The notes: generated from the letters alone by a model not told the origin. DNA of 64,000 bases from Candidatus Levyibacteriota bacterium (GCA_027459745.1 DAIDHL010000001.1:168290-232289); one strand, 5' to 3'; positions 33,669 through 64,000 are shown, counted from the stretch's first letter. Made by a program: numbers and translations.

Positions 33669-33992
33669 ATGAGTACCAAGGCAGATAATGAGATATTGCC
33701 AGAAGATAAGATACAACTCAATCAGGATCAAGAAAATTTGATTACGTTGGCCTTCGCAAAACAGATACCAGTTGACGATGCTGAATTCATTGAAAAGATA
33801 CAAAAACAGGACAGGCCATCAACTGGTGCTTATATTGAGATTGAGGAGTATTTTACAAAGAAATATGGCGAAGAATTTGGGAGAATCTTTCTTGCTACAA
33901 TTACTGGTGGAGAAGCAAGCTACAAAAATACAATAGAGAAGCTTGAGAAAGAACGAGCTCAGAAAAGAATACGTCTTGGAAATAGTAATTAG
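33669..33992 (+). CDS. hypothetical protein
   Basis: 107-aa acidic ORF inside the element. Confidence 0.4.
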   Translation: MSTKADNEILPEDKIQLNQDQENLITLAFAKQIPVDDAEFIEKIQKQDRPSTGAYIEIEEYFTKKYGEEFGRIFLATITGGEASYKNTIEKLEKERAQKRIRLGNSN

Positions 33993-34213
33993 TCAGGAAA
34001 AATATCTGATGCTTTCACCTTTAATGCCTTAATCACTCTATAGATGTTCTGGAAGGTTGTATTGATCTCTCCCCGTTCAATTTTTGCGTAATAATTACCT
34101 TTCATGCCAATCGCCTTAGCCACTTCCTCTTGAGTAAAGTTACCATTTACTCTTGCGTGACGTATCTTTTCGCCGAATTCTTTTTGAGCTTTATGATTAA
34201 CCTTGGTTGCCAT
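33989..34213 (-). CDS. XRE-family HTH transcriptional regulator
   Basis: FGEKIRHARVNGNFTQEEVAKAIGMKGNYYAKIERGE helix-turn-helix. Confidence 0.8.
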   Translation of the reverse strand: MATKVNHKAQKEFGEKIRHARVNGNFTQEEVAKAIGMKGNYYAKIERGEINTTFQNIYRVIKALKVKASDIFPD

Positions 34214-34240
34214 AGATAAAGTATAACAAAAATGGCCTCT

Positions 34241-34265
34241 CAGTGATACATTCAGCAGTGATACA
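34241..34265 (+). promoter_or_regulatory. two direct CAGTGATACA repeats between the XRE gene and divergent ORF
   Basis: CAGTGATACA at 34241-34250 and 34256-34265 in the 60-bp divergent intergenic region. Confidence 0.35.
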
Positions 34266-34273
34266 ATGAGCTT

Positions 34274-34678
34274 GTGGATACGAGTACACTATCTGAATCA
34301 TTTAAGCAAAAAGTACACAAGGCAATGGAGAAACCATATGTATGGCAAGAAGTTGAAGATCTCCAGACTAACGAACAGCTACTCGCACAGAAATATTTGT
34401 ATGGGAAGTTAAGTGGCAGAGAATTTGATCGTCGACTTACACGAATTCAATCGCAAGTTCCTTCACTTATTATTAAATCTCTCGATGAACTGGAAGCAGT
34501 TATGGATATATTGAATATTGGAGAAGAAATAAAAAGGAAAACGCTTCAAGATATGTCTTTTCAATATGAAAAAGCTGTAAAACAAGGATACTTATGTCGT
34601 TTTAGCGTTTGGTTTTATGAAACTATATATAAAGGAACTGCGATGTATTGCGCAACACAAATATATATAAGTAAATAA
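34274..34678 (+). CDS. hypothetical protein
   Basis: 134-aa ORF (GTG start) divergent from the XRE gene. Confidence 0.4.
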   Translation: MDTSTLSESFKQKVHKAMEKPYVWQEVEDLQTNEQLLAQKYLYGKLSGREFDRRLTRIQSQVPSLIIKSLDELEAVMDILNIGEEIKRKTLQDMSFQYEKAVKQGYLCRFSVWFYETIYKGTAMYCATQIYISK

Positions 34679-34695
34679 AAGTAATGTTCCCAAAC

Positions 34696-37131
34696 CTAAA
34701 AAATTTCAGATATTTTTTTTGCTGATTGAAGTAGCTCATATTTTGTATATCGTGGACTTTGTAGATTAATTCTGGGATTGTCTAAATGTATTGGGTTAAT
34801 TTGATAGATATCAGACAAAAATAGTTTAAATTTGCCGGTTTTCTCGTAAGGTTCTATGTTCTTAATTTTACCCATCCATCTTATTACTTTATTTGGTGCT
34901 ACTTCATATAATGCAAGATATTTGAGCTTCTTTTTTGCCTCGGGAGATAGTTTAACTGCCCACCAGGCATGCTGTTCAATAAATGCTCGGCTAAGACCGT
35001 CATTTTTTGTTGCGCAAATGATAGTATCATAATCTTTATCTATAGATTTAGCTACCCTAAAAACCTTCTTTTCAGGAATATGATCTTTTTGTACAATCTC
35101 AACTGGTTGTTTTGATTTTTCTAGTCTAGAGAATATTCTATCAAACCATTCGATCGCAGATTCCCCGTCTTTTCTAATCAACGGATCGCTATCTTTTGCA
35201 TGAGCTATATCATTACGATATTCCCTTAAATCAGTAAGCCTTTTTTGTAATTCTTCCTTAGAGCCGAAAATTGCTTCAAATAGATTCCAGTTTTTTAGTA
35301 TAATCTTTTGATAATCTCCCACATCACAATAATTCAGATAATCTCTTGTAGAAAAGTCAGTAAGATTTTTATATGGATTACGCTTAAGCTCTGAAGCTAT
35401 TTTAATACTTACATTAACCTTAGTATCCTCAGGTATAGATGTATTCCAATAACCTTGATTTACTGATAATGCTGTTTGTATTGTATCTCTTAGTCTTACC
35501 TCAATCATATCTATCGCTTTTTTAGGATCATTTGATAGTAGCTGCATAATTCTGCCTCCAGTTACTTTTTTAAATTCTTCAAAAATATAATTGGCTCGTT
35601 CTAGGATGAATTGTTCATATCGATTATTTTCAACTGCTTGGCTATAAGGAATCATTTGCACTTTTAGTGTTTCTCCAAAATTTGGATTTTCCTTGCTATA
35701 AGTACTAAAATAATCGCTAGGCGCTTGTTTGGAAATCTCTTTATTAAGTTCTGCAGGGATGAAACAGAAGTTAGCGATTGAGTATTCACTATACTTTATA
35801 CCTTTTGATCTTGATTTTAGGAATTCTTTAGGAAATATATGATGTCTCTCAGCAAGGTTTATGCTTGCACATATGGAATCATCTAAAATAATATTATTAT
35901 TGTTTTTAAAATGCTTGGGACTTTTGCTGGCTAAAAGACAAAAGAAAACATTTCTAAGTGAGGATTTCGTTGTTATTTTTGTTTCGATAATTTCTTCTGG
36001 GGTAAGCGTAATTGGATAGTTAATTTCTACGTTGTCCTTTCCTTCAATAAAGCTGTCAAATATATCTTTTCGATCTTCCCACATGTGTGTATCACGTTGA
36101 CTACCGTATCTTTCGCTTAAGGAAGCTTTCCAAAACCATTCCTGAACTTTTTTGGTTACATTTTGGTTGAATGATGCTTTTGGATATTTATAATAAAGAT
36201 ATATAAGAAGAGAGAGAATTGCAGGGTATGGTAAAAATTCATATGTTTTTACTCCTAAATTTGCAGTAAGATGATCCACAGCTTTTTCTACAGATTGGCA
36301 TACTTTAGGCCATGCTGATTTAATCTCTTCTTTTTTAAGTTCAAATAAATATTTTTGGTTACAATATCCTTTAATAATTAACGCAATAGCTAATAATACT
36401 GGTTCTATTGGAATTTCTCCAAAAGATTTTTTGTCATTTATACTCTTACTTAAGGCCTCATACTTCTCTCGTATGTCAAAATCATCTCCCCACGTACTTG
36501 CGACAACGAGGTCAAAAACTGATAGTTTTTTGCCTCCTTGATTAATTCTTTCAAATATTTCAATCGCATCAGCGAGTTCTTTCTCTTTTACGCTAATTAC
36601 AGATAAAGGGTAATTAGCAAAAATTCCAGTCAGTTTTTGAAATATCTTTTTTCTTTCATCAGTCAAGTTCTTAAATATTTCTAAGGATGTTTCCTGACTA
36701 AAGATATCTCTTACAGAAGCAAAATGATTATCTTTTGTCTCTTCCTCGAAAAAAACCTCATCATCAAAATTAAAGCAGATATTACCATAATTAATGGTAT
36801 CTACTGTTAATCCATTAAACGTAACAAATAAAGCAGTCGCTCTTTGTTGTCCATCAAGAATGTATCTCAAATCTGAGTGGCCGTCTGGTTTTGGTAAATT
36901 TAATTCAGGGAAATCCTTATAAAAAAGATTATATTGTCTATCTGCGTCCCAAACAAAAAAACTTCCTATTGGATACTCTCTATATATTGAGTCTAGCAAG
37001 TCAATAATTTTTTTACGTCCCCACACGAATTTTCTCTGAAAACGCGGTATGCGGAGTGTTCCATTTGATATATCGTAAAGAAGATTAGATAATTTGTAAT
37101 TTGATTTTATTTCAATCTTAGATATTTCCAT
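34696..37131 (-). CDS. GmrSD-like nuclease: DUF262 (ParB-like) + DUF1524 (HNH/His-Me) + C-terminal HEPN-like RNx3H domain + unknown C-terminal module
   Basis: RIPRFQRKFVW...YPIGSFF...LDGQQRATAL (DUF262); ERHHIFPKEFL...NFCFIPAELNK (DUF1524); EYRNDIAHAKD (Rx4H); final 150 aa unassigned. Confidence 0.7.
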   Translation of the reverse strand: MEISKIEIKSNYKLSNLLYDISNGTLRIPRFQRKFVWGRKKIIDLLDSIYREYPIGSFFVWDADRQYNLFYKDFPELNLPKPDGHSDLRYILDGQQRATALFVTFNGLTVDTINYGNICFNFDDEVFFEEETKDNHFASVRDIFSQETSLEIFKNLTDERKKIFQKLTGIFANYPLSVISVKEKELADAIEIFERINQGGKKLSVFDLVVASTWGDDFDIREKYEALSKSINDKKSFGEIPIEPVLLAIALIIKGYCNQKYLFELKKEEIKSAWPKVCQSVEKAVDHLTANLGVKTYEFLPYPAILSLLIYLYYKYPKASFNQNVTKKVQEWFWKASLSERYGSQRDTHMWEDRKDIFDSFIEGKDNVEINYPITLTPEEIIETKITTKSSLRNVFFCLLASKSPKHFKNNNNIILDDSICASINLAERHHIFPKEFLKSRSKGIKYSEYSIANFCFIPAELNKEISKQAPSDYFSTYSKENPNFGETLKVQMIPYSQAVENNRYEQFILERANYIFEEFKKVTGGRIMQLLSNDPKKAIDMIEVRLRDTIQTALSVNQGYWNTSIPEDTKVNVSIKIASELKRNPYKNLTDFSTRDYLNYCDVGDYQKIILKNWNLFEAIFGSKEELQKRLTDLREYRNDIAHAKDSDPLIRKDGESAIEWFDRIFSRLEKSKQPVEIVQKDHIPEKKVFRVAKSIDKDYDTIICATKNDGLSRAFIEQHAWWAVKLSPEAKKKLKYLALYEVAPNKVIRWMGKIKNIEPYEKTGKFKLFLSDIYQINPIHLDNPRINLQSPRYTKYELLQSAKKISEIF

Positions 37132-37178
37132 ATTTGGATTATATCAAACACAACAACAAGTAAACAGCTTTAGAACAT

Positions 37179-37958
37179 CTACTCATCCACAATCTTCATC
37201 CAGTTTCCCCACGTATGCTTTGTACCAATCAAGGTATCTTTTGTAGTCACATAGATGCTAACTTCTCCCCATTCCTCTCGTAACACAGTACGAGCGCACC
37301 GCATCACTTTTTTCTGTTCATAGGAAGTCTGTGTAACAAGCAGAAGTGTAGGGAATGCTATCTTCATGACGTCTTCATCCCAAGTATCCGCACAAGTGAA
37401 ATATCTTCGAATTTTACTTTTAATAAATCGTTTAGGTATCTTTTCATCAAACAGTTCAAGAAAATAATATTTAGTCTTTGTCCCTTGCTTCGTTACAGAG
37501 AAATAGCCATCAGCTGGGGGTTGCGGAAGATCAACATAACTCGTGAGTTCTATCTTACTAAAAAATGAGACGTCTTTGTCTTGCTCCTTGTAATACTGCT
37601 TTAAAGAGTAAGCAATCTTAGCAATATCACAACAATGGATTTGAAACCGTTGACTCCGTTGCTTTTCTCGATACAGTTGTGACAATATATATGCCTCACA
37701 GTCCTTTTGTGATTTCAAAATCTTCGCTGCTTTACTGGATAAACAATATATTGCCGGCTTAGTACGATTGATAAATGAAGCTTTATCATAAAACTGAACA
37801 ATATATCCTTTATCTACTAAATCTTTAAGCCATTGCTGAATACGAGTAGGGAGTTTATGTTTTAAATAGAGTTGAATAGTTGGTGTATCTAAGAATCTGA
37901 ATTGGTAGAGTAAAAGCATGATAGCTAATTGTTTTTTTGTTATTTTAAATTCTGGCAT
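37179..37958 (-). CDS. Replic_Relax-like winged-helix protein (putative relaxase/replication-relaxation family), paralog of 61670-62434
   Basis: LYQFRFLDTPTIQLYL...IQQWLKDLVDKGYI N-terminus and clear similarity to the second copy (FVTTKD, YYFLELFDE/RYFLDYFDE). Confidence 0.5.
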   Translation of the reverse strand: MPEFKITKKQLAIMLLLYQFRFLDTPTIQLYLKHKLPTRIQQWLKDLVDKGYIVQFYDKASFINRTKPAIYCLSSKAAKILKSQKDCEAYILSQLYREKQRSQRFQIHCCDIAKIAYSLKQYYKEQDKDVSFFSKIELTSYVDLPQPPADGYFSVTKQGTKTKYYFLELFDEKIPKRFIKSKIRRYFTCADTWDEDVMKIAFPTLLLVTQTSYEQKKVMRCARTVLREEWGEVSIYVTTKDTLIGTKHTWGNWMKIVDE

Positions 37959-38142
37959 AATAAAACCTCACAACACATACTATTTATATATAAATAGAAA
38001 GATGTGGTACATTATATCTTACTCAGCCGTAAACGCAAGCATTTTTTGCATGCACGCTACACGCAAGATTCTTAACGAGCAAAAACGTAAACTGAAGGGT
38101 GCACATTGGCTAAATACTTGGGGAATTAGCCATTATTCCGCT

Positions 38143-38187
38143 TGACAAGCACTTAATTAATTTATATACTGTCTATATATAGACAGT
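38143..38187 (+). promoter_or_regulatory. promoter TTGACA-17-TATACT overlapped by perfect 20-bp palindrome ACTGTCTATATATAGACAGT (38168-38187)
   Basis: Palindrome sits at the predicted +1 of the 92-aa ORF / serine recombinase operon. Confidence 0.5.
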
Positions 38188-38203
38188 CATTATTTATCCT
38201 GCA

Positions 38204-38482
38204 ATGATTGACAATTCAGAAAAGAAATCTCGACAATTTAATCTAAATTATTTTCCTCAGTCATCCATTTTTGCTAACTCACTAAATGAAATGTTCCCAG
38301 AACAGCAACATGAAGATAAAACTGTCAAGAAAGCAAGAGAAGTTCTAGGAGAAAATTATACTTTAGAACAAACAAAAGAGCTGATGGCTTCTTATGAGTT
38401 TATTATTCAAAAGTGGCTGGAAGAATATGAGAAAAGCATTTTTAACAATAAAACATTAAAAGAGCTACTTCAAAAAAATTAA
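38204..38482 (+). CDS. hypothetical protein co-transcribed with the serine recombinase (possible accessory/RDF)
   Basis: 92-aa ORF ending 2 nt before the recombinase start. Confidence 0.4.
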   Translation: MIDNSEKKSRQFNLNYFPQSSIFANSLNEMFPEQQHEDKTVKKAREVLGENYTLEQTKELMASYEFIIQKWLEEYEKSIFNNKTLKELLQKN

Positions 38483-38483
38483 T

Positions 38484-40016
38484 ATGGCTGGAGCTGAACT
38501 AACTAAACAAGCAATTATTTACATCCGAGTCTCAAGCGAAGAACAGGTTGAAAATTTTTCATTGGATACACAAGATGATATTTGCAGAAAAGAAGCAACT
38601 AGGCGAGGTTTTCAAATAATTGAAATCTTTCGGGAAGAAGGAAAGTCTGCAAAAACTATAACGGGCAGACCAGAGTTGATGAAGCTATTAGATTATTGTC
38701 GAAGAAACCGCAGACATGTTGATGCAGTATTTGTATACAGACTTGATCGTATATCTCGACAAACATCTGACTACTTAGCTATTCGAAAACGCTTGGCAGA
38801 TTATGGCATTTCCTTAATTTCAGCTAATGAACCTACTGGAAACTCCCCAACAGAGAAATTATTGGAAACAATTATTGCCAGTTTTGCTCAACATGATAAT
38901 GATGTTCGTTCAGAACGAACAAAAAATGGCTTACGCACAAGATTTCTTGCTGGTATGTGCACGGGCAAAGTGCCAATAGGATACGTTATGGAAGGCGGTT
39001 ATGCAGTAAAAGATAAAAATTTTGAAAATATGAAGAAAGCTTGGAATCTTATGGCAACAGGAACAAAGAGTCTTTCAGAAATGGCTGCGATTATGAATGA
39101 ATGGGGAATACGAAAAGTTGTTGCTGGTAAAGAGCATAAACTACGAATGCAAACAGTCGGTAGATTATTTAGACATAAATTTTATATGGGTGTTCTGACC
39201 TCTACAAAATATCCAGAAGAGATTCGAGGACAACATGAGGCAATGGTAACGGAAGAGCAATTTTATAAAGTACAAGCAATTATAGATGGCAGGAATGTCA
39301 GTGGGATGACTATTGGTAAGCGACTCAATGAGAACCCAGATTTTCCTTTACGACGAGTAATTAAATGTGGAAAATGTGGAGGAGTTTTATCCGGCGCTTG
39401 GAGTAAGGGGAGATCAAAACGATATGCTTACTATATCTGTAAAAACCGTTGTGGTGCTCCATCTATTGCTGTTAAAAAATTGGACGACTCACTCATACAA
39501 TACTTCCAAGATATTACGCCTACTAAAGATCAACTAGATGTATTTCTGATTGTGTTAAGAAAAATGTTTTATCAAAGCCTATCGGGGCTTCAAGCAAAAC
39601 GAGTGATAGCTCAAGAAGAAATATATAAGCTAAAACAAATGAGACAAAAGCTTGTAGAAAAAAATTTGGCAGGGGTCTATTCAGATGAGATATTTAAAGA
39701 GCAAAGGGTTATTATTGAAGACAAAATTGCTACTGCTGAAAGTATTTTAGGACAGACAATTTTTGATAAATACAATTTTGATGATGTCGAGAAATTTATG
39801 CGTGCAAAATTTAAGGATCTCGGTCAAACTTACATAGATTCTGAGCCTGGGGTTCGTCGTGTGCTGCTTGGTTCGATATGTCCCGCTGGGTTGGCATGGT
39901 CATATTCTGGCTTATCGAATCGCGAGTTTAACAAGCAATATCAGGCTATTCTTGATATAGGAAGTGGTAATTTTGCAATGAGTACCCCATCTGGGACGAT
40001 GTTCGTACCTATCTAG
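38484..40016 (+). CDS. large serine recombinase (resolvase/invertase N-domain + recombinase domain + zinc ribbon)
   Basis: AIIYIRVSSEEQ catalytic Ser motif, ...VYRLDRISR; CGKCGG...C zinc ribbon; 510 aa. Confidence 0.85.
   Translation: MAGAELTKQAIIYIRVSSEEQVENFSLDTQDDICRKEATRRGFQIIEIFREEGKSAKTITGRPELMKLLDYCRRNRRHVDAVFVYRLDRISRQTSDYLAIRKRLADYGISLISANEPTGNSPTEKLLETIIASFAQHDNDVRSERTKNGLRTRFLAGMCTGKVPIGYVMEGGYAVKDKNFENMKKAWNLMATGTKSLSEMAAIMNEWGIRKVVAGKEHKLRMQTVGRLFRHKFYMGVLTSTKYPEEIRGQHEAMVTEEQFYKVQAIIDGRNVSGMTIGKRLNENPDFPLRRVIKCGKCGGVLSGAWSKGRSKRYAYYICKNRCGAPSIAVKKLDDSLIQYFQDITPTKDQLDVFLIVLRKMFYQSLSGLQAKRVIAQEEIYKLKQMRQKLVEKNLAGVYSDEIFKEQRVIIEDKIATAESILGQTIFDKYNFDDVEKFMRAKFKDLGQTYIDSEPGVRRVLLGSICPAGLAWSYSGLSNREFNKQYQAILDIGSGNFAMSTPSGTMFVPI
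39820..39987 (+). repeat. direct repeat copy B (inside the 3' end of the serine recombinase gene)
   Basis: See copy A. Confidence 0.9.
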
Positions 40017-40086
40017 CTTCACTTGATAAAAAAGAAAAAGAAGTCCTTAAATTGATGTTTTCCTCAAAAAGTAAGGAGGAAACACA

Positions 40087-40578
40087 ATGTTAGATTTCTG
40101 GAAACGAAAACAAACAAAGGTTGTTTCAGTTTTGCTTACCTCAATTCTACATGATGAAACAACATTTTATCAAGCATTCTTAAAAGATTTACAAGCTGCA
40201 AAAAGAGAGGTCATCATTGAGAGTCCGTATATTACGAGTTATCGAATGCGGATGCTTTACCCAATCTTTGCAAAATTACTTCATCGAGGGATAAAAGTAT
40301 TTATCATAACTCGTCCTCCACAAGAGCATGACAGCGAAAAGATGCGTGCACAAGCAGAGATAGAAATTCGTCGCTTTGAACAAATTGGCATTCAAGCACT
40401 CCTTTGTGTTGGTAGTCATCATAGAAAGCTTGCAATGATTGATCGGAATATTTTATGGGAAGGTAGCTTAAATATTCTCTCTCAGTCATACAGTCGGGAA
40501 TATATGCGAAGAATTGCCAGTCACCAAATCACACAGGATACCTTTATATTTTTAAAATTTGATAAGATTATTTATTGA
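40087..40578 (+). CDS. PLD-family (single HKD) nuclease, Nuc-like
   Basis: GSHHRKLAMIDRNILWEGSLN contains HxKx4D; 163 aa as in plasmid Nuc endonucleases; strong RBS AAGGAGG. Confidence 0.7.
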   Translation: MLDFWKRKQTKVVSVLLTSILHDETTFYQAFLKDLQAAKREVIIESPYITSYRMRMLYPIFAKLLHRGIKVFIITRPPQEHDSEKMRAQAEIEIRRFEQIGIQALLCVGSHHRKLAMIDRNILWEGSLNILSQSYSREYMRRIASHQITQDTFIFLKFDKIIY

Positions 40579-54858: not shown

Positions 54859-55368
54859 ATGGTATCAATTCGAAAAATATTCCTGCCCACTATCGTTATT
54901 TCAGTTTTTTATATTCTCCTTTTTACGTACTTTCGTAACTTCAATCTTGTTAATACAACACTCATAAATAATACACCGATTCTCTATAAAATAAAGCTGT
55001 TTTCTATCCTTATTGAAGGACTTTCCTCAACGATGACTCAAGTGGGTTTACTTTTAATGTTTCTGACCGGATTTCTAATAGGGTTAAATCTAACGCTGAT
55101 GTTTCAAAAAGTCGCATTTTTAAAACAAGCGGGATCTGTAAAGTTTGTTGCAGGTGGCAGTTCTTTTTTTGGAGTAATTAGCGGAGGCTGTGCATCTTGT
55201 GGGCTGCCTGTTCTATCTCTATTTGGATTAAGTGGCGCAGTTGCTTATCTTCCTTTTAAAGGTGTTGAATTACCATATATTTCTCTTATCCTCCTTTCTG
55301 CATCACTGTTTTTCTTATTACGAAATAAAACCCAACTGCAAGTCTGCGAAGTCAAAAAGACAAAATGA
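54859..55368 (+). CDS. membrane protein with GGCASCG motif
   Basis: 4 predicted TM helices; CxxC in a Gly-rich loop. Confidence 0.4.
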   Translation: MVSIRKIFLPTIVISVFYILLFTYFRNFNLVNTTLINNTPILYKIKLFSILIEGLSSTMTQVGLLLMFLTGFLIGLNLTLMFQKVAFLKQAGSVKFVAGGSSFFGVISGGCASCGLPVLSLFGLSGAVAYLPFKGVELPYISLILLSASLFFLLRNKTQLQVCEVKKTK

Positions 55369-56336
55369 AAAAACATTCAATTTTACTGCCTAAATCAAGA
55401 GTACGCTTAGTAGCGATAGTCTTTATTTTGCTACCACTCTTTATCGTTGGATTATATTATGTACGTTCAGCACCTTCTGTCCAAAAAACAGCAATAAATC
55501 TTGCTTATGATACAAGAAAAATTCCAGTTGTTGGACATCTCATTCCTCTTTCCTGGTTACCAAAACGAGATGTTGCCGAAGAGGTATTACCTAAAGAAGG
55601 ATTTCAAACACAAATTATACTTGGCGATGTCATTCCAAAAATGGTGAAAGTTGGTGTTATTGATCCAGCAAAGATTGAAGATTTGTACAAAAACGACAAG
55701 AGTACACAACAACAAATTAAGCAATTGCTTTCTCAATCATCAAATGCACCCCTTACAATTAACTCAAGTAATACCTTATGGTTATTAAATCTTCTCTGGC
55801 CGTTAGGACTTGCAAACAAAATGAAAGTGAATGAGCAAAGCCAAGTTGCTGGTGCAGACGTTAATAACTTTGCTTCAACTGGTGGGTGGACACTTGGAAA
55901 AGCAGACAGTGGCGGTGGATATTTTAATAAATACCAAATACTTCCATTAACTTCGCAGCAAGAACAAAGAGTAAAAACGATTGCTGATACAATTCATAGG
56001 CCATGTTGTAATAATTCTGCTTTTTTCCAAGACTGCAATCATGGTTCTGCAATGCTCGGACTTGTAGAGCTTGGAGTAAAAGAAGGATTATCAGATGAAG
56101 AGATCTACAAAACTGCGCTTGCATTTAACTCATTCTGGTTTCCGCAAAACTATATGGAAACGGCATTGTATTTTGAGAAAGTAAAAGGGCAAGATTGGGA
56201 AGAAATTGATTCCAAATTGATTTTATCAAAGCAATACTCGAGTATTAGTGGATGGATGGCAAATGTTGATACGGTTGCTCGAAAAACACCTGGTCTAATA
56301 CCAACTACACAAAATGGTGGTAGTTGTGCGGTATAG
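55365..56336 (+). CDS. membrane-anchored Cys-rich exported protein (PCCNNSAFFQDCNHG)
   Basis: N-terminal TM, extracytoplasmic domain with CC...C motifs; paralogous motifs in next gene. Confidence 0.45.
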   Translation: MKKHSILLPKSRVRLVAIVFILLPLFIVGLYYVRSAPSVQKTAINLAYDTRKIPVVGHLIPLSWLPKRDVAEEVLPKEGFQTQIILGDVIPKMVKVGVIDPAKIEDLYKNDKSTQQQIKQLLSQSSNAPLTINSSNTLWLLNLLWPLGLANKMKVNEQSQVAGADVNNFASTGGWTLGKADSGGGYFNKYQILPLTSQQEQRVKTIADTIHRPCCNNSAFFQDCNHGSAMLGLVELGVKEGLSDEEIYKTALAFNSFWFPQNYMETALYFEKVKGQDWEEIDSKLILSKQYSSISGWMANVDTVARKTPGLIPTTQNGGSCAV

Positions 56337-56367
56337 TTTTTCGGTATAATAACTGATGTAAAATTAC

Positions 56368-57063
56368 TTGTATATGAAACGTCAACAAATTCTTATAGGG
56401 ATTGTTCTAATTGCTACAGTAGCATTAGGATACTTTGTGCTTAATCCATCAGCACTTATTTCACTCATAAATCCAAATAATCCAGATGTGGTACATGCGC
56501 AATTACTTTCTACCTATAACTCAATTCCTACCTCATCTGGAAAGAACGCATTTTTGAAACAAAGTAATAATCTGACCACAAAAGTTGATACGGAATTAGC
56601 AGATTTAGATAGCGAAATTATTTCTTGTGACGCAAATGTTGATAATCTCATGTCTACTGGTAGTATTGGTGGCAGTTGTGTAGGTGGTGGTACAACGTTG
56701 CCAACTGCAAAAGGAAAGTTCTTAGGTGGACAATGCTGTGGAGCCATGACTACTACCAAAGATTATCATGCGCAACTACAGAAGTTGCAGGTATATAAAA
56801 ATATTCCAGATATGCCTCTAAATCCCTATAAAACGCCAGTAGAATTAGCAAAAAAATGGATTGATGTTGATAAATCAACAACCTTATCAGCAGACCAGCA
56901 AAAAGTCTTTAATCAAGCATTAAGCATGTCAAAGGAAGGGCCATGTTGCTGTAAGTGTTGGCATTATTATGTGAATGAAGGGATTGCAAAAAAGATGATT
57001 CAAGATAACGGGTGGACTGGACAACAAGTTGCACAATTTTGGGATAATTCTAGTATTTGCTAA
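56368..57063 (+). CDS. membrane-anchored Cys-rich exported protein (GQCCGAM; GPCCCKCWHYY)
   Basis: N-terminal TM, CC motifs similar to 55365-56336. Confidence 0.45.
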   Translation: MYMKRQQILIGIVLIATVALGYFVLNPSALISLINPNNPDVVHAQLLSTYNSIPTSSGKNAFLKQSNNLTTKVDTELADLDSEIISCDANVDNLMSTGSIGGSCVGGGTTLPTAKGKFLGGQCCGAMTTTKDYHAQLQKLQVYKNIPDMPLNPYKTPVELAKKWIDVDKSTTLSADQQKVFNQALSMSKEGPCCCKCWHYYVNEGIAKKMIQDNGWTGQQVAQFWDNSSIC

Positions 57064-57098
57064 AAATCTTTACTATACTACGTCTTGTAGGAACTGTT

Positions 57099-58055
57099 AT
57101 GAAAAAATCATTACCAATTATTGTTATCGTTGTTCTTGTAATCATTGGGATTATCTATATTACAACAAAAAATAGTAGTAATTCCAATATGCAAGGAATG
57201 CATATGATGAATGGCAGTAGCATGCAGGGTATGGATATGGGCGATAAGCAGTCAGCAGCCCAAAGCAATCGAACCTACACCTACACACTCCAATTAACAT
57301 CTTCAACAAGTAATTTACAACCGAATCAACAGACGACAATCACTTATAAAATTGTAGACGATCAAGGGAATATTTTAAAAGATTATGCTCTTGACCATAC
57401 AAAATTAATGCATTTTATTGTTGTGAGAAAAGATTTACAGGATTTTCAACATATTCATCCTGATTTCAATAAGAACACAGGTGAGTTTCGTATTCCTGTT
57501 ACCTTTCCGGAGATAGGGACATATCGGTTATTTGCCGATTTTACACCTGCAAATGGGCAAAAAGATGCACAAGGTGATATTTTAAGTGTTACGCCATATA
57601 AAGATGTAAATGTGGGAGACATCACAAAATATACACCGCAAGCAGTAACACCTGATACCCAGACAATAAAAACAGTAGGAGACTTTCAAATCACCTATAC
57701 GCTTCCACAACCGTTACAGGCAAACAAGTCCGCTACTATCACAGCTCACGTAACTAAAAACGGACAACCTGTTACTGATATGCAAGAATATTTAGGGGCA
57801 TTAGCACACGGTATTTTACTCAAACAAGACACATTAGATTTTGCTCATTTACACGATATGGGGCAAATGGGGAGTGGTAGTATGCAAGGAATGAGCATGC
57901 AGAACATGAATACAGGCAATGCTAAAATAACCAATACGGGTCCTAATATTACCTTTACCTATTCATTTCCTTCAAGTGGGGTATATAAACTCTTTACGCA
58001 ATTTGAAGAACAAGGTAACGTGATAACAACAGACTATACAATGCAGGTGCAATAA
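57099..58055 (+). CDS. Met/His-rich exported protein, putative Cu-binding
   Basis: Signal/TM MKKSLPIIVIVVLVII; MQGMHMMNGSSMQGMDMGD and HLHDMGQMGSGSMQGMSMQNM Met-motifs; start re-picked at 57099. Confidence 0.5.
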   Translation: MKKSLPIIVIVVLVIIGIIYITTKNSSNSNMQGMHMMNGSSMQGMDMGDKQSAAQSNRTYTYTLQLTSSTSNLQPNQQTTITYKIVDDQGNILKDYALDHTKLMHFIVVRKDLQDFQHIHPDFNKNTGEFRIPVTFPEIGTYRLFADFTPANGQKDAQGDILSVTPYKDVNVGDITKYTPQAVTPDTQTIKTVGDFQITYTLPQPLQANKSATITAHVTKNGQPVTDMQEYLGALAHGILLKQDTLDFAHLHDMGQMGSGSMQGMSMQNMNTGNAKITNTGPNITFTYSFPSSGVYKLFTQFEEQGNVITTDYTMQVQ

Positions 58056-58090
58056 TACTGATTGAAGTTATTGCAAAATATAAGTTTTTT

Positions 58091-58864
58091 ATGAACAAAT
58101 TTTCTTCTTCACCTGTCACGCATCACATTGCAACTAAAGTTCCAGAGATCACTCTCATCTTTTGGATTATTAAACTACTCTCTACTGCGATGGGTGAATC
58201 AACCACTGACTATTTTGTTTACCAATTTAATCCCTACATTATTGTAGTACTTGGATTTATTGGCTTGGCCGCTGCGCTTACATTACAATTTTTTAGACGT
58301 CGTTATATTGCATGGATTTATTGGTTAACAATTGTCATGGTTGCCATATTTGGAACAATGGCAGCAGATGTTGCACATATTGTCATAGGAGTGCCCTATT
58401 TTATATCGACACTATGTTTTTCACTAGTACTTGGTATCGTTTTCTTCTCTTGGTATTTCAGTGAAAAAACACTATCTATCCATAGTATCTATACACGCCG
58501 AAGAGAATTGTTTTATTGGGCAACGGTTATGGCAACATTTGCTCTTGGTACCGCTGCAGGTGATATGACTGCTTCAACGCTGCACTTAGGATACTTTTCA
58601 TCATTTATTATATTTGTCATATTGTTTGCTCTCCCCGCTGTAGCATATAAGCTATTTGGGTTAAATGAGATTATTGCTTTTTGGTTTGCCTATGTCATCA
58701 CCCGACCACTCGGTGCGACATTTGCCGATTGGTTAGGAAAATCAATTCTCGGTGGTCTTGGAATAGGTGATGGAAAAGTAGCTTTGGTATTGACGATATT
58801 AATTATTATTTTTGTTGGCTATGTGACAGTCACAAAAACTGATGTAGATAATATGAAACTATAG
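58091..58864 (+). CDS. polytopic membrane protein, function unknown
   Basis: About 7 hydrophobic segments with internal duplication. Confidence 0.45.
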   Translation: MNKFSSSPVTHHIATKVPEITLIFWIIKLLSTAMGESTTDYFVYQFNPYIIVVLGFIGLAAALTLQFFRRRYIAWIYWLTIVMVAIFGTMAADVAHIVIGVPYFISTLCFSLVLGIVFFSWYFSEKTLSIHSIYTRRRELFYWATVMATFALGTAAGDMTASTLHLGYFSSFIIFVILFALPAVAYKLFGLNEIIAFWFAYVITRPLGATFADWLGKSILGGLGIGDGKVALVLTILIIIFVGYVTVTKTDVDNMKL

Positions 58865-58879
58865 TCAAAAACCCAGTAC

Positions 58880-59884
58880 TTATTCTGTATTATTTATGAT
58901 TGTTTTCGCTCCAGAAATGTACCCATAAGAATTCCATGATATATTGAGATAATGCAATAATGCTTGTCCGGTCATATATCCAGGTCGCACACGAAAGAGA
59001 AAATACCTATTCTGCTGGTTTTGCTCATTTCCTGCAATTGTTGACGCTGCTGTCGTGAATCCTGCCTGCTTTACAACACTGAGTGTCTGTGCATCAAATG
59101 CACCATAAGGATAGGCAAAGGAATAGACATGGATATGATATTCTTGCTCAAGCATCGTTTTGCTGGTATCAACTTCCTCTTGTACATATGCGAGCGGTTT
59201 CCCTTTCAGTAATACGTGATGAACAGTATGCGCACCAATGTCCACCAGACCACTGTTAACAACGTCTTGGAGCTCTTTTGGAGTAAGGGAGTCAGAGTTC
59301 GTACCCACAAAGCCTGGGACGATATATGCCGTTACTTTTATATGGTATTTTTTCAAAATTGGTAGAACGTTTGTGTCTAAATCCCAATGTCCATCATCAA
59401 ATGTCAAAATTATTGGATTTTGGGGAAGTGGCATCTTTCCATCAAGGATATCTCCTAATTCTTTTGCAGTAATAAAGGTATATCCGGCTTGCAAAAGGGT
59501 TTGAATTTGCTCTTCAAAGACGTTTGGGTCAACATTTAAAAGTTGACGTTCTGTATCTTTGGTATTTTGTACGTACTCAACGTAATGGTACATAAGAATA
59601 GGCACATGCAGCGTTGCAGAGATACTTGCTGTGTGTGTTTGTTGCTGGAGGACTTTTCTCACATCGGATGGTATCTTTTTCAGAGAGTTTTTCTCAGTTT
59701 CAGGAACCATTTTTTGATGTAAAGACGATGTTCTATAGAACAAAAAGCCTCCAAGTAAAGTAAGGATTGCTATAGCAATAAGTAATGGTATATATCGTTT
59801 TTGATGCAATACTTCCCCAAGGAGACTTTTTTTAAGAATTATTTTATTTTTCTGACGACGTCTTTTACGTTGTTGCACTGGCAT
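58880..59884 (-). CDS. polysaccharide deacetylase (NodB homology), membrane anchored
   Basis: ILTFDDGHWD...HTVHH motifs of CE4. Confidence 0.75.
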   Translation of the reverse strand: MPVQQRKRRRQKNKIILKKSLLGEVLHQKRYIPLLIAIAILTLLGGFLFYRTSSLHQKMVPETEKNSLKKIPSDVRKVLQQQTHTASISATLHVPILMYHYVEYVQNTKDTERQLLNVDPNVFEEQIQTLLQAGYTFITAKELGDILDGKMPLPQNPIILTFDDGHWDLDTNVLPILKKYHIKVTAYIVPGFVGTNSDSLTPKELQDVVNSGLVDIGAHTVHHVLLKGKPLAYVQEEVDTSKTMLEQEYHIHVYSFAYPYGAFDAQTLSVVKQAGFTTAASTIAGNEQNQQNRYFLFRVRPGYMTGQALLHYLNISWNSYGYISGAKTIINNTE

Positions 59885-59970
59885 AGCTGGGATAAATGAA
59901 CACTAGGAATTTTAATTATAACATGAGTTTATAAAACAATGATTATCTTGGATAAAACAAAGGAGGAGGA

Positions 59971-60198
59971 TCAGAAGGGAATCAAGTCTTTTATCTTCAC
60001 TCCCAAAACTTGCGAAATCTTATACATCGTCTCAAAGGCAGGGAAGTTATATCCTGCTTCAATATATGCAATAGACGTTAAGGCTAATCCCGCTCTTTCT
60101 GCAAGCTGTTCTTGGGTTAACCCTTTCTCTTTTCTCAACTTCTGAATATGTCTTCCCAACGTTTGCCGCATATTATTTAGTTTAGTATCATTACTCAT
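59971..60198 (-). CDS. XRE-family HTH regulator
   Basis: LRKEKGLTQEQLAERAGLALTSIAYIEAG; C-terminus similar to the XRE at 33989-34213. Confidence 0.8.
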   Translation of the reverse strand: MSNDTKLNNMRQTLGRHIQKLRKEKGLTQEQLAERAGLALTSIAYIEAGYNFPAFETMYKISQVLGVKIKDLIPF

Positions 60199-60230: not shown

Positions 60231-60303
60231 TATTAGTCTATGACTAATAATGCATCTTGACAACCTGCAAACTTTGAGGCAATATATTAGTCATAGACTA
60301 ATA
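60231..60303 (+). promoter_or_regulatory. divergent switch region: two 19-bp palindromes TATTAGTC-TAT-GACTAATA (60231-60249) and TATTAGTC-ATA-GACTAATA (60285-60303) flanking TTGACA (60257-60262) -35
   Basis: Both palindromes perfect; second overlaps the -10 of the rightward promoter. Confidence 0.6.
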
Positions 60304-60306
60304 AGT

Positions 60307-60651
60307 ATGGAGCTATATCTAGAAGATATTGTATGGGGGAATAGGCTGTACGTTAACGCACAGTTTACAGTTACATTTGTATCATTGCTTCAAAAGTATG
60401 CGCAAGGGAAAATTCCTCTCGCCTACTTCTTTTCTTATGCTCATGCTATAAAAATGCAACGAAAAATCATACTTTATAAAGATTTAGCCAGACAAATAGA
60501 TGAGATTACTACTCTTGAAGATCTCATTAAGACAGGAAAGGTAACTCTTCGTGATGTTCGTGTGATCCACTACATTATAAATCGGGTGTATATCCAGCTT
60601 ACAGGAGCCCCCTTAGACTTTGTAAGAACTTCTAACGATACATTATCTTAA
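60307..60651 (+). CDS. hypothetical protein (114 aa) downstream of the XRE-controlled promoter
   Basis: ORF track starts at 60250 but that overlaps the promoter; internal ATG 60307. Confidence 0.45.
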   Translation: MELYLEDIVWGNRLYVNAQFTVTFVSLLQKYAQGKIPLAYFFSYAHAIKMQRKIILYKDLARQIDEITTLEDLIKTGKVTLRDVRVIHYIINRVYIQLTGAPLDFVRTSNDTLS

Positions 60652-60681
60652 TCCCTACCTCTGTTAAGGGCTGCGCCCCTC

Positions 60682-60776
60682 TTTTGCAAGGGTATATAAA
60701 CGAAGTCGTTGCTTCGCCCTTGCAAAATTCACCCTGCTATTGCATCGCAGGTATAGGAAGCAGGCAGGCTGCTTCC
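60682..60776. other. GC-rich non-coding segment with three consecutive hairpins, candidate oriT or structured RNA
   Basis: TTTTGCAAGGG...(nested CGAAG/CTTCG)...CCCTTGCAAAA; CCTGC-9-GCAGG; GGAAGCAG-5-CTGCTTCC. Confidence 0.35.
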
Positions 60777-60821
60777 TAAAAAATATTTTCAAATATACGC
60801 AGCCAGAAAGGGGTGAATAAA

Positions 60822-61160
60822 ATGAATCCAGTAATTACAGCAGATTTCTCACAATTTGGTATACGAGAACTGACCTTTGCACAGCTATTACTCAAAGCAT
60901 ATGCAGAAAGAGGTGCCGATTTTTTAGGGTGTGGGTTAACAGTCAATTTCAATACACACAGTGGGTATGTTTTCTTATCGGATGAAGATTACAACGTTGG
61001 TGTACTCGATGAAACAGAAGAATACATCGTGCAATTTTACTCATGCCCACAATGTGGCTATGAAGGGACACAACAAGAAGCAGTGGATAATGGCTGTGAC
61101 TTCGTTAAAAACGACGGGTACTGTTCGAAAAAATGCTACGAGCGTGAGTGGAGTTGTTAA
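60822..61160 (+). CDS. Cys-rich small protein with zinc-ribbon-like CPQCG...C..C
   Basis: ATG 60822 after GGGG Shine-Dalgarno; ORF track starts at GTG 60813. Confidence 0.45.
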   Translation: MNPVITADFSQFGIRELTFAQLLLKAYAERGADFLGCGLTVNFNTHSGYVFLSDEDYNVGVLDETEEYIVQFYSCPQCGYEGTQQEAVDNGCDFVKNDGYCSKKCYEREWSC

Positions 61161-61669
61161 AAAAATTCTGCCCACCTGCCCATAATATTATTTGACAATC
61201 TACCAGCAGAACAATATACTGAGGTTATTATCATGGAGAATGGCGAACAATCAGAACAACGGCCACAACAATTTCAGGAATACGGAGACGTAAACCTCCT
61301 GATGACCAATGGAGTAATATAACTATTACTCGCCCACTACGTGGAGGCAAGACAGAACAGATAGAACTTCGGTTCCCTTTACGACTACAGAACTAGATAC
61401 CATAAATGCAGCCAGACAAGCGAGGGATACACTTGCGGATGAAGCATTAGCAGGAAGTGGTCATGTGCGAACTTTTTATACCCAGGAATCAATACCGCAA
61501 GGCTATTCACTGCAAGATAGATCAAGTGCAGTACAATCAATGCGAAAAGCCGCAATGTATGCAGCAACACTTCTTGATCGACCTGGCATTTCAAACCCAT
61601 CAAGGGCAACATTGACGACAGTAGTTGATACACTGCAGCCATTCCTTGCTCCTAAGAAGGGATAAATAG

Positions 61670-62434
61670 CTAGTCAACAGTTTCCCAAATATTTACATTA
61701 GATTGTGCAAAGCGAATTTTATCTTTGGTTGTCACAAAAAAGGAAATGTCAGCAAATGATTTCTCCAGTACCGCCTTTCCGTAATATACAATATGCTTTT
61801 TCATTCGCTCATTTGCACAAATAAATAATATAGTTGGAAACGGCGCATCATCTGTATTTGTACTCCAATCTCCTTCGTCAAGGTATTTCAAGTATCCTTG
61901 CAGTCGCCCCCGAATAACACGGGAAGGAGTCGCTTCGTCAAAATAGTCGAGAAAGTATCGCTCAACTTTGTCCTTTGCCAGTTCTGTAATATACGCATCA
62001 GGTAATGGCTCAGGAAAATAATCATACATCCATAATTCAGATTGGGTAAAATAGTCTACTAGTGTACTTTCTCCTTTCTGTTCACAAAAGAAAAAATAAA
62101 GGTCAGCAATAAAAAGATTTCGATTAATAAAATTTTTCGTCTTTGTTTTTTCTTTGTATAACCACCGAAGTAAATTGGGATTGCATGCTTCATTTTCTTT
62201 AAGAATATGTCGTGACTTACTCTCCAAATGAAAGATATATGGTTTTGTCACATTACTTTTATCTGATATACAACCAATATATCCTTTTTCTTTTAAATCT
62301 GTTACCCATGCTTTAATGCGATGGGGGTCTTTGTGATGAAAGAGTTTTTGGAGATGAGAAATAGTAAGAAAGCGGAATCGATAGAGTTGATATTGTAGTT
62401 CTTTTTCTTTTTTAGTGGTCGGTGGTAATACCAT
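61670..62434 (-). CDS. Replic_Relax-like protein, paralog of 37179-37958
   Basis: LYRFRFLTISHLQKLF...IKAWVTDLKEKGYI...FVTTKD. Confidence 0.5.
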   Translation of the reverse strand: MVLPPTTKKEKELQYQLYRFRFLTISHLQKLFHHKDPHRIKAWVTDLKEKGYIGCISDKSNVTKPYIFHLESKSRHILKENEACNPNLLRWLYKEKTKTKNFINRNLFIADLYFFFCEQKGESTLVDYFTQSELWMYDYFPEPLPDAYITELAKDKVERYFLDYFDEATPSRVIRGRLQGYLKYLDEGDWSTNTDDAPFPTILFICANERMKKHIVYYGKAVLEKSFADISFFVTTKDKIRFAQSNVNIWETVD

Positions 62435-62581
62435 AGAGTTTATTAAAATATATCTGTTTGTGAGTCCATTTCGATCCTCTTATATACTATATAAGAATAA
62501 GAAGGATGTATTTCTCATAAAAATAGATTCAAAACCAACAAATTTATGTACCCACACGTAGGTACAATTCGTCGGTACTAT

Positions 62582-64000
62582 TCATTGTCCTTTTTTGCGC
62601 TTGGGTAATCGGTTATTTGTTACAGATTCCTCCTTCGTTCCATTGTCTTCTTTGTTAGTCTTCTCATCATTTGTAAATGTAGGTTTGATTACTGCTTTTG
62701 TTATTTTTTTGACTATTTTCTTCACGTAAATAATCGCATAATTCTTCCTCGATGCTTCAATCAACCGTTGTATTCTTATCTGATCTTTAACAATTGCCTC
62801 TTTGATTGTTTCTCCTGAGAATGGTTCTTCTGATTCAAGGGCAGTAATTTTAATATAGAATCGAAAACGGGGAAGATTCATGATTTCTCCCTTTTGTAAG
62901 AACGGTGCAAATTGCGAAAGCAATAAGTCTTCATCAATGGGATTACCTGTTCGGAAACTGACAATGGTTGTGACATTAGCTAAGATAACGGGAACAATTG
63001 TTCTATCTTGTTGCTGAGACGTTGACTGCTCGGCAATGATTAACCGTAGTCCATATTTACGTCCCTCGGCAAGCAACTTGGTAAATGATTGGGTTGCAAA
63101 GTTTTGGAATTCATCAACATAGAGATAAAATGGTCTTCGTGTTTCTTCTGGAATGTTTGCCCGTTTGAGTGCTGCTTGTTGCAGTTTTGTTAGTATCGTT
63201 ATTCCTAACAGTCGTGATGTATCTTCACCGATGCGTTGTGAGAAATTACAGATGAGGATTTTCCCATTTAATATTTCATCAAAGTTAATGGTTGACTTTG
63301 GTTGTTCCAATATGCGTCTCGCAGTAGGCGATCGGAAGAATCGACTTACCTTTGCTGTGACACCTTGTGTCATTTTGACGACTTGGAAGTCACCTGCTTT
63401 GCCAAATTCATATTTCCAAAAGTCGAGTAATTCCTCATCGTCAGTTATTTTTTTGAGGACATCATTTCTGAATTTTGGGTTCGATAATATTTTATTCAAT
63501 GTGAATAATGTTGCGTCTTCGACATAAAATGCTGTATAAATCGTTTGTCGAAGGATATGCTCAATGCGATGGGCATTGGCATGTTCTTCTTTGGAGAAGA
63601 CTTTGCGAAAGAGCGAAACAACACCCTCTGTGACTGTTTCTTTTTCCAGTTCTGTCTCATCGTCATCTAATCCCTTGGTCAATTCCAATACGTTGATCCC
63701 AACTGGATATTTCAAATCGGCTGGATTAACGTACACAAGATCATTGATACGTTCTTCAGGGATCGTCGCGAGTAATTCTTGTGCCACATCACCATGCGGA
63801 TCAATAAAAGCAATCCCTCTGCCTTTTTGGATATCTTCCATTGCCATACGAAACATCATGGTTGTTTTCCCACTTCCGGTTCTTCCCAGAATATACATGT
63901 GCGTTGCCCGCTGCTCGTCAGTTAGACCAATTTCTGTTGTTATGCCTCCATAGGTATTTTTAGCAAAGACGACATCCAATTGTTTGCCTTGTTTAAGCGA
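62582..64000 (-). CDS. type IV coupling protein-like ATPase (TraG/VirD4/TcpA-like), N-terminus beyond window
   Basis: Walker A GRTGSGKTT, IDPHGD, Walker B YLYVDEFQNF; reading frame stays open to the window edge. Confidence 0.7.
   Translation of the reverse strand, partial: SLKQGKQLDVVFAKNTYGGITTEIGLTDEQRATHMYILGRTGSGKTTMMFRMAMEDIQKGRGIAFIDPHGDVAQELLATIPEERINDLVYVNPADLKYPVGINVLELTKGLDDDETELEKETVTEGVVSLFRKVFSKEEHANAHRIEHILRQTIYTAFYVEDATLFTLNKILSNPKFRNDVLKKITDDEELLDFWKYEFGKAGDFQVVKMTQGVTAKVSRFFRSPTARRILEQPKSTINFDEILNGKILICNFSQRIGEDTSRLLGITILTKLQQAALKRANIPEETRRPFYLYVDEFQNFATQSFTKLLAEGRKYGLRLIIAEQSTSQQQDRTIVPVILANVTTIVSFRTGNPIDEDLLLSQFAPFLQKGEIMNLPRFRFYIKITALESEEPFSGETIKEAIVKDQIRIQRLIEASRKNYAIIYVKKIVKKITKAVIKPTFTNDEKTNKEDNGTKEESVTNNRLPKRKKGQ

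Follow-up and report, generated by a model that had tools for sequence, protein, structure and literature searches.

A probable head-to-tail array of three integrative elements, each closed by a large serine recombinase, in a Candidatus Levyibacteriota genome

We analysed a 64,000-nucleotide stretch of DNA from Candidatus Levyibacteriota bacterium (GCA_027459745.1, DAIDHL010000001.1:168290-232289), hereafter the window. Its right half holds two sets of genes for an XRE repressor and a Replic_Relax relaxase, with an intact large serine recombinase (LSR) gene and a type IV secretion system (T4SS) between them. Genes were inventoried from an open reading frame (ORF) listing and Pfam scans of the window. 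Left of ~31.8 kb there are housekeeping genes throughout (CTP synthase, UvrB, phosphoglucomutase, Dus, and others). The features to the right are given below under three elements, X, A and B, which probably form a head-to-tail array of integrative elements from one Patescibacteria family, each closed by its own LSR.

33388-33567, plus strand: ghost X, a recombinase 3′ end; left copy of a 180-nt direct repeat
33562-33600, plus strand: core GTACCC and left terminus of A (attP-type P′ arm), TCAATGCAAATACCATCGAACCGC
33669-33992, plus strand: hypothetical gene, 107 residues; left-end gene of A
33989-34213, minus strand: XRE repressor, 74 residues; HTH_3, E 1.3e-12
34274-34678, plus strand: small ORF, 134 residues, divergent from the XRE gene
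34696-37131, minus strand: GmrSD_N/HEPN protein, 811 residues; cargo of A
37179-37958, minus strand: Replic_Relax, predicted MOBC-type relaxase of A; PF13814, 25.1 bits
38168-38187: 20-nt palindrome upstream of the orf92-recombinase pair
38204-38482, plus strand: orf92, 92 residues, directly before the recombinase gene
38484-40016, plus strand: LSR, 510 residues; Resolvase, Recombinase and Zn_ribbon_recom domains
39808-39987, plus strand: 180-nt repeat, right copy; P arm of A, within the recombinase gene
39988-40086, plus strand: left terminus of B, P′ arm, CATCTGGGACGATGTTCGTACCTATC..., up to the start codon of the PLD-like gene
40087-40578, plus strand: PLD-like nuclease gene, terminal gene of B; PLDc_2, E 8.9e-12
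42315-47512, minus strand: T4SS module of M23 hydrolase, VirB4 (two ORFs), PrgI/VirB3-like protein, VirB6-like protein and pilin, by Pfam
47690-59884, mixed strands: cargo block of B, by Pfam
59971-60198, minus strand: XRE, 75 residues; HTH_3, E 2.5e-15
60250-61160, plus strand: two small ORFs of B, the first at 60250-60651
61670-62434, minus strand: Replic_Relax, predicted MOBC-type relaxase of B; PF13814, E 1e-3
62582-63979, minus strand: VirD4/TraG-type coupling protein of B; TrwB_AAD_bind, TraG-D_C and T4SS-DNA_transf

A preliminary description of this DNA had seen two related conjugative elements in tandem, the left one decayed, and the genes and gene order that it named are present. The two sets are indeed related, at family level only: the XRE proteins share 32% identity (BLASTP, E 2e-10) and the relaxases 33% over 242 residues (BLASTP, E 2e-40). 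The relaxases had been called clear paralogs; their homology holds, but not a special closeness, as the pair is 33% identical against 37-51% for best matches in other genomes. Of the proposed common motif FVTTKD, VTTKD is shared, the copies reading YVTTKD and FVTTKD. The XREs are 74 and 75 residues long, not equal in length as had been said, and the small divergent ORFs (34274-34678 and 60250-60651) show no significant similarity to each other (BLASTP, E 0.038). A comparison of 33.4-38.2 kb with 59.9-64 kb, suggested as a dot-plot, reveals no DNA similarity; the relaxase pair alone matches, at the protein level.

Recombinase relatives number in the hundreds in Patescibacteria metagenomes. Scanning species-representative genomes with the recombinase gave 62 loci, in which the window proteins were searched by tblastn, and layouts were counted in the 41 loci with at least 6 kb upstream of the recombinase. 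The relaxase lies left of the recombinase in 36 of the 41, on the opposite strand in 33 of those. A type IV coupling protein (T4CP) gene is also found left of the recombinase, between it and the relaxase, in 30/41, and an orf92 homologue immediately 5′ of the recombinase in 34/41. The family module is thus relaxase (minus strand), usually T4CP (minus), small ORF (plus) and LSR (plus), with the 3′ end of the LSR gene abutting a tRNA gene. Because the relaxase stands left of the recombinase in most loci, the recombinase at 38484-40016 closes the left element and does not open the right one, and the same phase makes 37179-40016 a single module. The preliminary description had the right element opened by the intact recombinase; on these comparisons its boundaries are off by one module, and its cut between 37958 and 38484 splits one element.

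The 3′ end of an antisense tRNA gene touches or overlaps the recombinase ORF end in at least 44 of the 55 loci with downstream sequence, and in 4 further loci under a looser criterion. The targets are tRNA-Glu (20 loci), Gln (6) and His (5), and also Lys, Gly, Arg, Leu, Ala and Tyr. Recombinase ORFs usually read into the antisense tRNA, giving recurrent G-[IN]-R-T tails that are the translated T-loop (L002-L061). The window recombinase is the exception, with nothing tRNA-like after the gene. The Patescibacteria-type module is also what many of the loci L009-L061 contain whose metagenome-assembled genomes (MAGs) bear the label of uncultured Gammaproteobacteria, Pseudomonadales, Anaerolineae or archaea; those labels may be unreliable or the bins mixed. 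Three loci are possible arrays: L016 has a second T4CP gene after the recombinase in place of a tRNA (12740-13732), L055 a recombinase followed by a terminus-like arm, TGGTGAAC...TCCGAACC (1388-1430), and L039 a second, distant recombinase 8 kb downstream (19256-20167).

The DNA after the window recombinase has its counterpart at the end of another kind of element. Eight metagenomic loci share CATCTGGGACGATGTT[ACG]GAACCTAT... with the window from the first base (39988) to the ATG of the PLD-like gene. To the left of that boundary they have the 5′ end of a neighbouring tRNA gene, where the window has the recombinase of A. A terminus common to eight loci, with divergence to its left, indicates that B begins at 39988 and that the A/B junction is the recombinase-side arm of A joined to the terminus of B. 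From its predicted gene content, B is a large, complete-looking conjugative element that continues past the window end.

A metagenome scan with VirB4 returned 80 loci, with VirB4 73-80% identical, whose order in the orientation of the window is terminus, PLD, XRE, variable genes, M23, VirB4, PrgI, VirB6 and pilin. More than 20 related T4SS loci end, past M23/XRE, with the PLD-like gene, and in at least seven of them a tRNA gene is directly beyond it. A relaxase and/or T4CP follows the pilin in L079, L091, L120 and L122, with a recombinase too in L091, and T4CP, relaxase and T4SS occur together in the window order in L091, L120, L122, L014 and L061. The T4CP of B is 70% identical to those of L014 and L091, where the recombinase lies ~1.7-2.4 kb further on. 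The best relative of the B relaxase is that of L014 (51%), and homologues of orf115 of B (56% identical) adjoin the relaxase in L018 and L029. B combines the T4SS mating-pore genes of an integrative and conjugative element (ICE), including the VirB4 ATPase, with T4CP domains and a Replic_Relax relaxase that alone falls below the PF13814 cut-off. Its left end is set by homology in eight loci, while L091, L014 and others serve to predict its integrase and right end. Judged by the spacing in 28 loci, the recombinase of B should start ~3.2-3.5 kb beyond the relaxase, near 65.6-65.9 kb; recombinase and target tRNA should lie 1.5-4 kb past the window end.

VirB4 of B (42930-45405) is encoded by two overlapping ORFs, a 216-residue N-terminal part and a 610-residue ATPase (P-loop_TraG/AAA_10). 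The same split recurs in related loci (L064-L143), which marks it as a conserved arrangement rather than a pseudogene. The T4CP of B starts at the Walker A region, without an N-terminal membrane segment; the homologue in L001/L003 has 1006 residues and an extra DUF8128 region.

Element A, 33568-39987 (6.42 kb), is an intact mobilizable element with a putative defence gene. It runs from the end of the left repeat copy to the end of its own recombinase-borne arm. The solitary element of L010 has the same layout, with hypothetical gene and XRE at the left and relaxase, orf92 and recombinase at the right, and ends in tRNA-Glu. Its left end reads GGTGACC/TCAACGCAAATACCATCGAACC, where the window from 33562 reads GTACCC/TCAATGCAAATACCATCGAACC, and the similarity starts exactly at the core (33566-33568) and continues into the 107-residue gene. 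The L010 recombinase is 71% identical to that of the window, and its homologue of the 107-residue gene, in the same position, 47%. XRE homologues adjoin the left terminus in L010, L011 and L028, and PLD in many T4SS loci.

A has its own recombinase and relaxase, together with defined ends, and has neither T4CP nor T4SS, the composition of an integrative and mobilizable element (IME). Its mobilization by a helper, which we infer from the shared relaxase family and the neighbouring B-type genes, would use the T4CP and T4SS of a B-type element. The left element had been described as decayed, with a GmrSD-like gene in the place of its lost T4SS. All genes of 33568-39987 are full length, however, and A fits a recurrent class of T4CP-less loci (L010, L011, L028, L036, L038, L040, L053, L062) that, like the window, have only 0.5-2.3 kb between relaxase and recombinase. 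Conjugative relatives have the T4SS between the PLD/XRE end and the relaxase, and the GmrSD gene sits in the XRE-relaxase cargo slot, which holds a DinG-like helicase in L028 and genes of no known family in L011. In a rough neighbour-joining relaxase tree the T4CP-less elements are polyphyletic, with the relaxase of A on its own long branch, and we therefore do not claim a single IME lineage.

The one long repeat in the whole window marks the ends of A. It is 180 nt long (33388-33567 and 39808-39987), 96% identical, and corresponds to the 3′ end of the recombinase gene, ending 29 nt short of the stop codon. All 4 mismatches fall in the first 36 nt, and an unbroken run of more than 135 identical nt comes after them. 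The left copy, ghost X, covers the last ~60 codons of the recombinase; tblastn finds residues 442-510 only, and no other remnant of the recombinase, relaxase or T4CP in the window. Since the ghost is followed by the terminus of A, the X/A junction looks like the attP of a circular A. At 96% DNA identity the ghost is an A-type recombinase end and does not pair with the left XRE and relaxase, which are only 32-33% identical to their counterparts. The recombinase remnant of the preliminary description is thus real, although it lies at 33388-33567, left of the start given for the left segment, and the decayed member is a third element, represented by these 180 nt.

Other loci bear similar traces. 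L011 has an independent ghost (1330-1401), a 70-nt recombinase 3′ fragment at the left end of a compact element; its inner 53 nt are identical, it ends 8 nt into tRNA-end sequence, and the element terminus follows. In L028 the scar is a 17-nt tRNA 3′ end (4949-4965) that lies 120 nt beyond the terminus. Evidently sites of this kind become occupied again, and what survives longest of an outer element is the piece touching the inner one. In L106 (~19960-20050), a duplicated 22-nt tRNA-Gln 5′ fragment adjoins the PLD terminus. In the window, two ORFs of 209 and 297 residues occupy 31782-33351, between the last housekeeping gene and the ghost; they may be chromosomal or the leftovers of an older element. 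Neither has a Pfam family, and the 297-residue protein, sought as a route to an empty site, has zero homologues in 5.8 billion proteins.

Serine integrases bind attP and attB half-sites via the zinc ribbon, and the bound motif is 5 bp nearer the crossover in attB than in attP (PMC3783163). From the core to the T-loop-like TTCGAACC, the element terminus measures 15 nt and the tRNA arm 10 nt in L010, against 13 and 8 nt in both L011 and L028, a shift of +5 bp in all three loci compared. The window offers element arms only, and its termini of A (33568 on) and B (39988 on) have the motif at the shifted position; in A, the T-loop-like TCGAACC is 5 bp further from the core than in a tRNA arm. Other terminus families beside PLD conform to this pattern, with an acceptor-like 7-mer, ~13 nt, and then TTYGAACC. 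From these alignments we read the element arm as a mimic of the tRNA arm in attP register. The shifted motif speaks for 39988 onward being an element end, not a degraded tRNA, and such copying with a 5-bp shift makes element ends readable directly from sequence. A separate search for a decayed tRNA in 39988-40086 led to its rejection, as ARAGORN, Rfam and local alignment to 46 tRNAs did no better than with shuffled controls. The reverse complement of the recombinase-side arm, sought in 46 loci for left ends, gave nothing convincing; the match between arms is too imperfect, and a flank of 10 kb is shorter than most elements.

The recombinase of A has the domain set of an LSR (PF00239, 2.8e-34; PF07508, 4.7e-09; PF13408, 3.7e-08) and the catalytic-serine context YIRVSSEEQ. 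Its relatives of known structure include the TP901-1, A118 and phiC31 integrases, and its closest homologues (66-75% identical) are from Microgenomates-type MAGs. It is predicted to catalyse attP x attB recombination. The gene is intact and extends by its last 10 codons into the terminus of B. Because the ORF crosses the attachment site, the C-terminal tail must differ between the integrated and excised states. As assembled, the tail reads PSGTMFVPI (39988-40016); in the circle it would be the 29-residue LNANTIEPLLLW... (33568-33656).

We propose that an element of this family runs from a conserved left terminus through a small gene or PLD, XRE, cargo and/or T4SS, MOBC-type relaxase, usually T4CP and a small ORF to the LSR, the 3′ end of whose gene is itself one arm of the attachment site. 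Solitary members are integrated at the 3′ end of a tRNA gene that follows the recombinase gene directly, in antisense orientation. As hosts have in common only the tRNA half of the target, a variable outer arm must be acceptable to these recombinases. The right junction of a resident element (recombinase end plus tRNA, attR-type) could then still serve as a target, and each newcomer would insert beside the tRNA, pushing older elements outward. From the predicted tRNA outward, B is a full ICE, A is intact without T4SS or T4CP, and X is a ghost; this gradient fits tRNA-side accretion, as does the terminus of B, which resembles a tRNA-Glu arm with a 5-nt insert. The serial integration and deletion proposed earlier survive as a tandem stack at one site with one member reduced by deletion, though with a different assignment of genes to elements. 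With two attP-type arms at each internal junction, members of the array may be locked in place, the exception being homologous recombination between the 180-nt repeats, from which a circle carrying attP and an intact recombinase gene would emerge.

Several points weigh against a three-element array. To our knowledge, canonical serine integrases do not recombine attP x attR, and the accretion route needs relaxed specificity. The A/B junction contains two unexplained extra C residues (GTACCC/CATCTGG, compared with GTGCAC/CATCTGG in solitary B-type termini). In an ungapped scan of the two junctions, dyad symmetry at X/A is weak (12/26 positions; window-wide mean 8.1, sd 2.0), and being unremarkable it leaves the ends to rest on terminus homology instead. 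The right end of B, with recombinase and tRNA, is outside the window. Most related T4SS loci have no relaxase or T4CP less than 7 kb from the pilin gene, so that the T4SS-relaxase linkage is not always demonstrable. Finally, a single homologous crossover within the 180 nt gives the same X/A picture, and the window is a MAG contig; these last two points bear on the alternatives that follow.

The alternative that we take most seriously, while thinking it unlikely, is that homologous recombination built X/A, either between circular A and a resident recombinase 3′ remnant or through an A-A tandem later trimmed. One crossover in the 180 nt would reproduce the flanks exactly (left copy with the A terminus, right copy with the B terminus). 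The confinement of mismatches to the outer repeat end, with an identical tract beside the core, resembles a conversion or crossover tract, and L011 is alike in this. Such an origin leaves the earlier X/B junction unexplained, however, and the precise end of the repeat at the att core, in the window and in L011, also fits site-specific exchange.

We consider it improbable that A is an assembly loop, a free circle (excised or plasmid-like) threaded into the chromosome via the repeat, with X-B as the true order. More than 135 identical bases exceed many assembly k-mers, an assembly graph of metagenomic reads would hold such a cycle, and the circle obtained by joining 39987 to 33568 does have an attP-like junction and leaves the recombinase gene intact. 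Against this, the layout recurs in L011 on a MEGAHIT k141 contig, where the identical stretch is only 53 nt and no such loop is possible, and the four private mismatches of the left repeat copy mark it as a separate locus. The ghost, A, B and their boundaries would in any case be unchanged, with only the integrated state of A in doubt.

According to a 2025 survey, only a few virB4 genes of Patescibacteria have a relaxase nearby, from which a role other than conjugation was argued (PMC12102498). In line with this survey and with the distances from the pilin gene noted above, the T4SS and 40-60 kb could be ordinary chromosome, with A at a non-tRNA site and the right XRE, relaxase and T4CP forming a separate small element. 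This is very improbable, as the T4SS unit ends in a conserved terminus of attP geometry beside differing tRNA genes (Gln, Lys, Leu, Val, Pro), and the five loci L091, L120, L122, L014 and L061 link T4CP and relaxase directly to the T4SS. In addition, 59885-59970 has no terminus-like sequence, and none was found within 40-60 kb either.

Hardly credible is the scheme of the preliminary description, in which elements start with a recombinase, the left one being an ICE that lost T4SS and cargo and gained GmrSD and the right one running from the intact recombinase: the order recombinase, XRE, small ORF, relaxase does occur twice, with a recombinase remnant before the left segment, but relatives place the relaxase upstream of the recombinase within one unit and a tRNA after it, the L010 homology runs from the 107-residue gene through the recombinase, the sequence after the recombinase is the conserved terminus of a PLD-ended T4SS unit, and the remnant matches the intact gene far more closely than the other pairs match each other.

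With the head-to-tail array as the preferred reading, we tentatively suggest a broader picture that is possible, though short of probable. The loci would represent a widespread Patescibacteria family of conjugative and mobilizable elements whose LSRs target tRNA 3′ ends. The terminus would mimic the acceptor/T-loop arm with a 5-bp attP shift, the C-terminal tail of the LSR would switch between excised and integrated forms, and newcomers would enter at the tRNA-side junction, with arrays decaying with distance. At least one major clade of supposedly non-conjugative T4SSs would then serve for transfer in true ICEs, whose MOBC relaxases are hard to detect.

Tandem stacking and decay of integrative elements are ordinary biology; the machinery and host are the unusual part here. 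Tyrosine-recombinase elements are well known to accumulate at a single attachment site as ICEs, IMEs and cis-mobilizable elements (CIMEs); ICESt1/ICESt3 with their CIMEs and tRNA-linked island arrays are examples. The window resembles them in the head-to-tail order of related elements at a shared site, in the presence of decayed members and in the hybrid junctions inside the array. Those systems use tyrosine recombinases and have identical core repeats at every junction, whereas the window has an LSR and internal junctions of two attP-type arms. A serine-recombinase precedent is provided by the SCCmec/ACME composite islands at rlmH, built by Ccr enzymes, where tandem stacks likewise form at the 3′ end of a conserved gene and newcomers enter beside the gene. 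Ccr enzymes have a documented relaxed site specificity, which for the window recombinases is an assumption. SCCmec/ACME islands have no relaxase or T4SS and a protein-coding target, unlike the elements described here with their relaxase/T4SS genes and tRNA target. Targeting of tRNA genes by serine rather than tyrosine recombinases is rare.

The phage LSRs of A118/LI, phiC31 and Bxb1 have the same domain set, and in them too the distal motif is 5 bp further out in the element arm (PMC3783163). In the present family, by contrast, the host arm is the tRNA acceptor and T-arm, mimicked by the element arm, and the recombinase gene crosses the attachment site. PF13814 is the MobC relaxase superfamily, and the streptococcal IME_Class_8 comprises a VirD4 coupling protein, a MobC/PF13814 relaxase and a serine integrase (Coluzzi et al. 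2017, PMC5357655). The likeness extends to the compact module of coupling protein, Replic_Relax/MobC relaxase, small gene and serine integrase at the element end, and to the hitch-hiking logic for elements without a T4SS. The window elements differ in that they belong to another phylum and target tRNA 3′ ends, A lacks the coupling protein, and the relaxases are so divergent that both fall under the Pfam cut-off.

The 2025 Patescibacteria T4SS study favoured a non-conjugative role for mostly relaxase-less clusters and did not discuss integrases or tRNA sites (PMC12102498). The window T4SS shares its VirB4, VirB6, VirB3/PrgI-like protein, T4SS_pilin and cell-wall hydrolase with that clade, and differs in lying within a unit that has a defined terminus, a T4CP and a MOBC-like relaxase. 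In the literature searched, of limited coverage, elements of this phylum with a serine recombinase that targets tRNA genes are not described. New here are the serine recombinase, the tRNA target with a mimicking arm, and the pairing of a Patescibacteria ICE with an IME. Patescibacteria are uncultured, and the locus with its relatives makes the question of conjugative T4SSs testable. The carriage of a candidate defence gene on a 6.4-kb mobilizable element in this phylum is a further point of interest.

The product of that gene (34696-37131) matches GmrSD_N (1.5e-30) and HEPN_Swt1 (8.9e-06) in Pfam, and PDC-M55C (3e-48), HEC-05 (9e-45, residues 120-524) and PDC-M34B (6e-13) in PADLOC. Pfam did not detect a DUF1524 His-Me nuclease domain in it. 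Classical GmrSD (DUF262 plus DUF1524) has no HEPN domain, whereas the protein of A has an extra one. We regard it as a candidate anti-phage nuclease with a DUF262/GmrSD N-terminal domain, an HEC-05-like core and a HEPN domain. The neighbouring 107-residue gene (33669-33992) and 134-residue ORF (34274-34678) matched no family in Pfam or PADLOC.

Both relaxases score under the PF13814 cut-off of 25.3 bits, that of A at 25.1 and that of B at 19.7, although 40 of 41 aligned members of their family match PF13814 (best E 2.2e-15). No solved structural relative of the relaxases was found. Between relaxase and recombinase, A has a perfect 20-nt palindrome, ACTGTCTATATATAGACAGT (38168-38187), with a counterpart in the same position in L003, L010, L011, L012, L016, L019, L025 and L062. 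At least 10 of 31 related loci have palindromes at this position with symmetrically changing arms (CTGTC/GACAG, CTATA/TATAG, CTGTA/TACAG). Arms that change together imply that the dyad symmetry is under selection, and the palindrome is a candidate operator or origin-of-transfer (oriT) hairpin. The stop codon of orf92 ends at 38482, with the recombinase start at 38484. Its product has no Pfam family, though 12 of 43 members show weak DUF349 matches; the AlphaFold model (pLDDT 77) is all-helical, and neither a PDB sequence search nor Foldseek of that model gave an informative match. By its position, orf92 is a candidate directionality or accessory factor.

The cargo of B fills 12 kb of the pilin-relaxase slot, which spans 1-6 kb in relatives. 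It encodes YibE/F, CsoR, an ArsP permease, an NAD-binding oxidoreductase, HMBD-MauE, a BlaI/BlaR-like pair, DsbA, YtkA, DUF347 and a polysaccharide deacetylase, and by these annotations looks like a copper/metal and thiol-redox set. CsoR homologues (63-71% identity) occur beside related elements in L073 (4141-4410, in the pilin-relaxase slot) and L031 (17369-17638).

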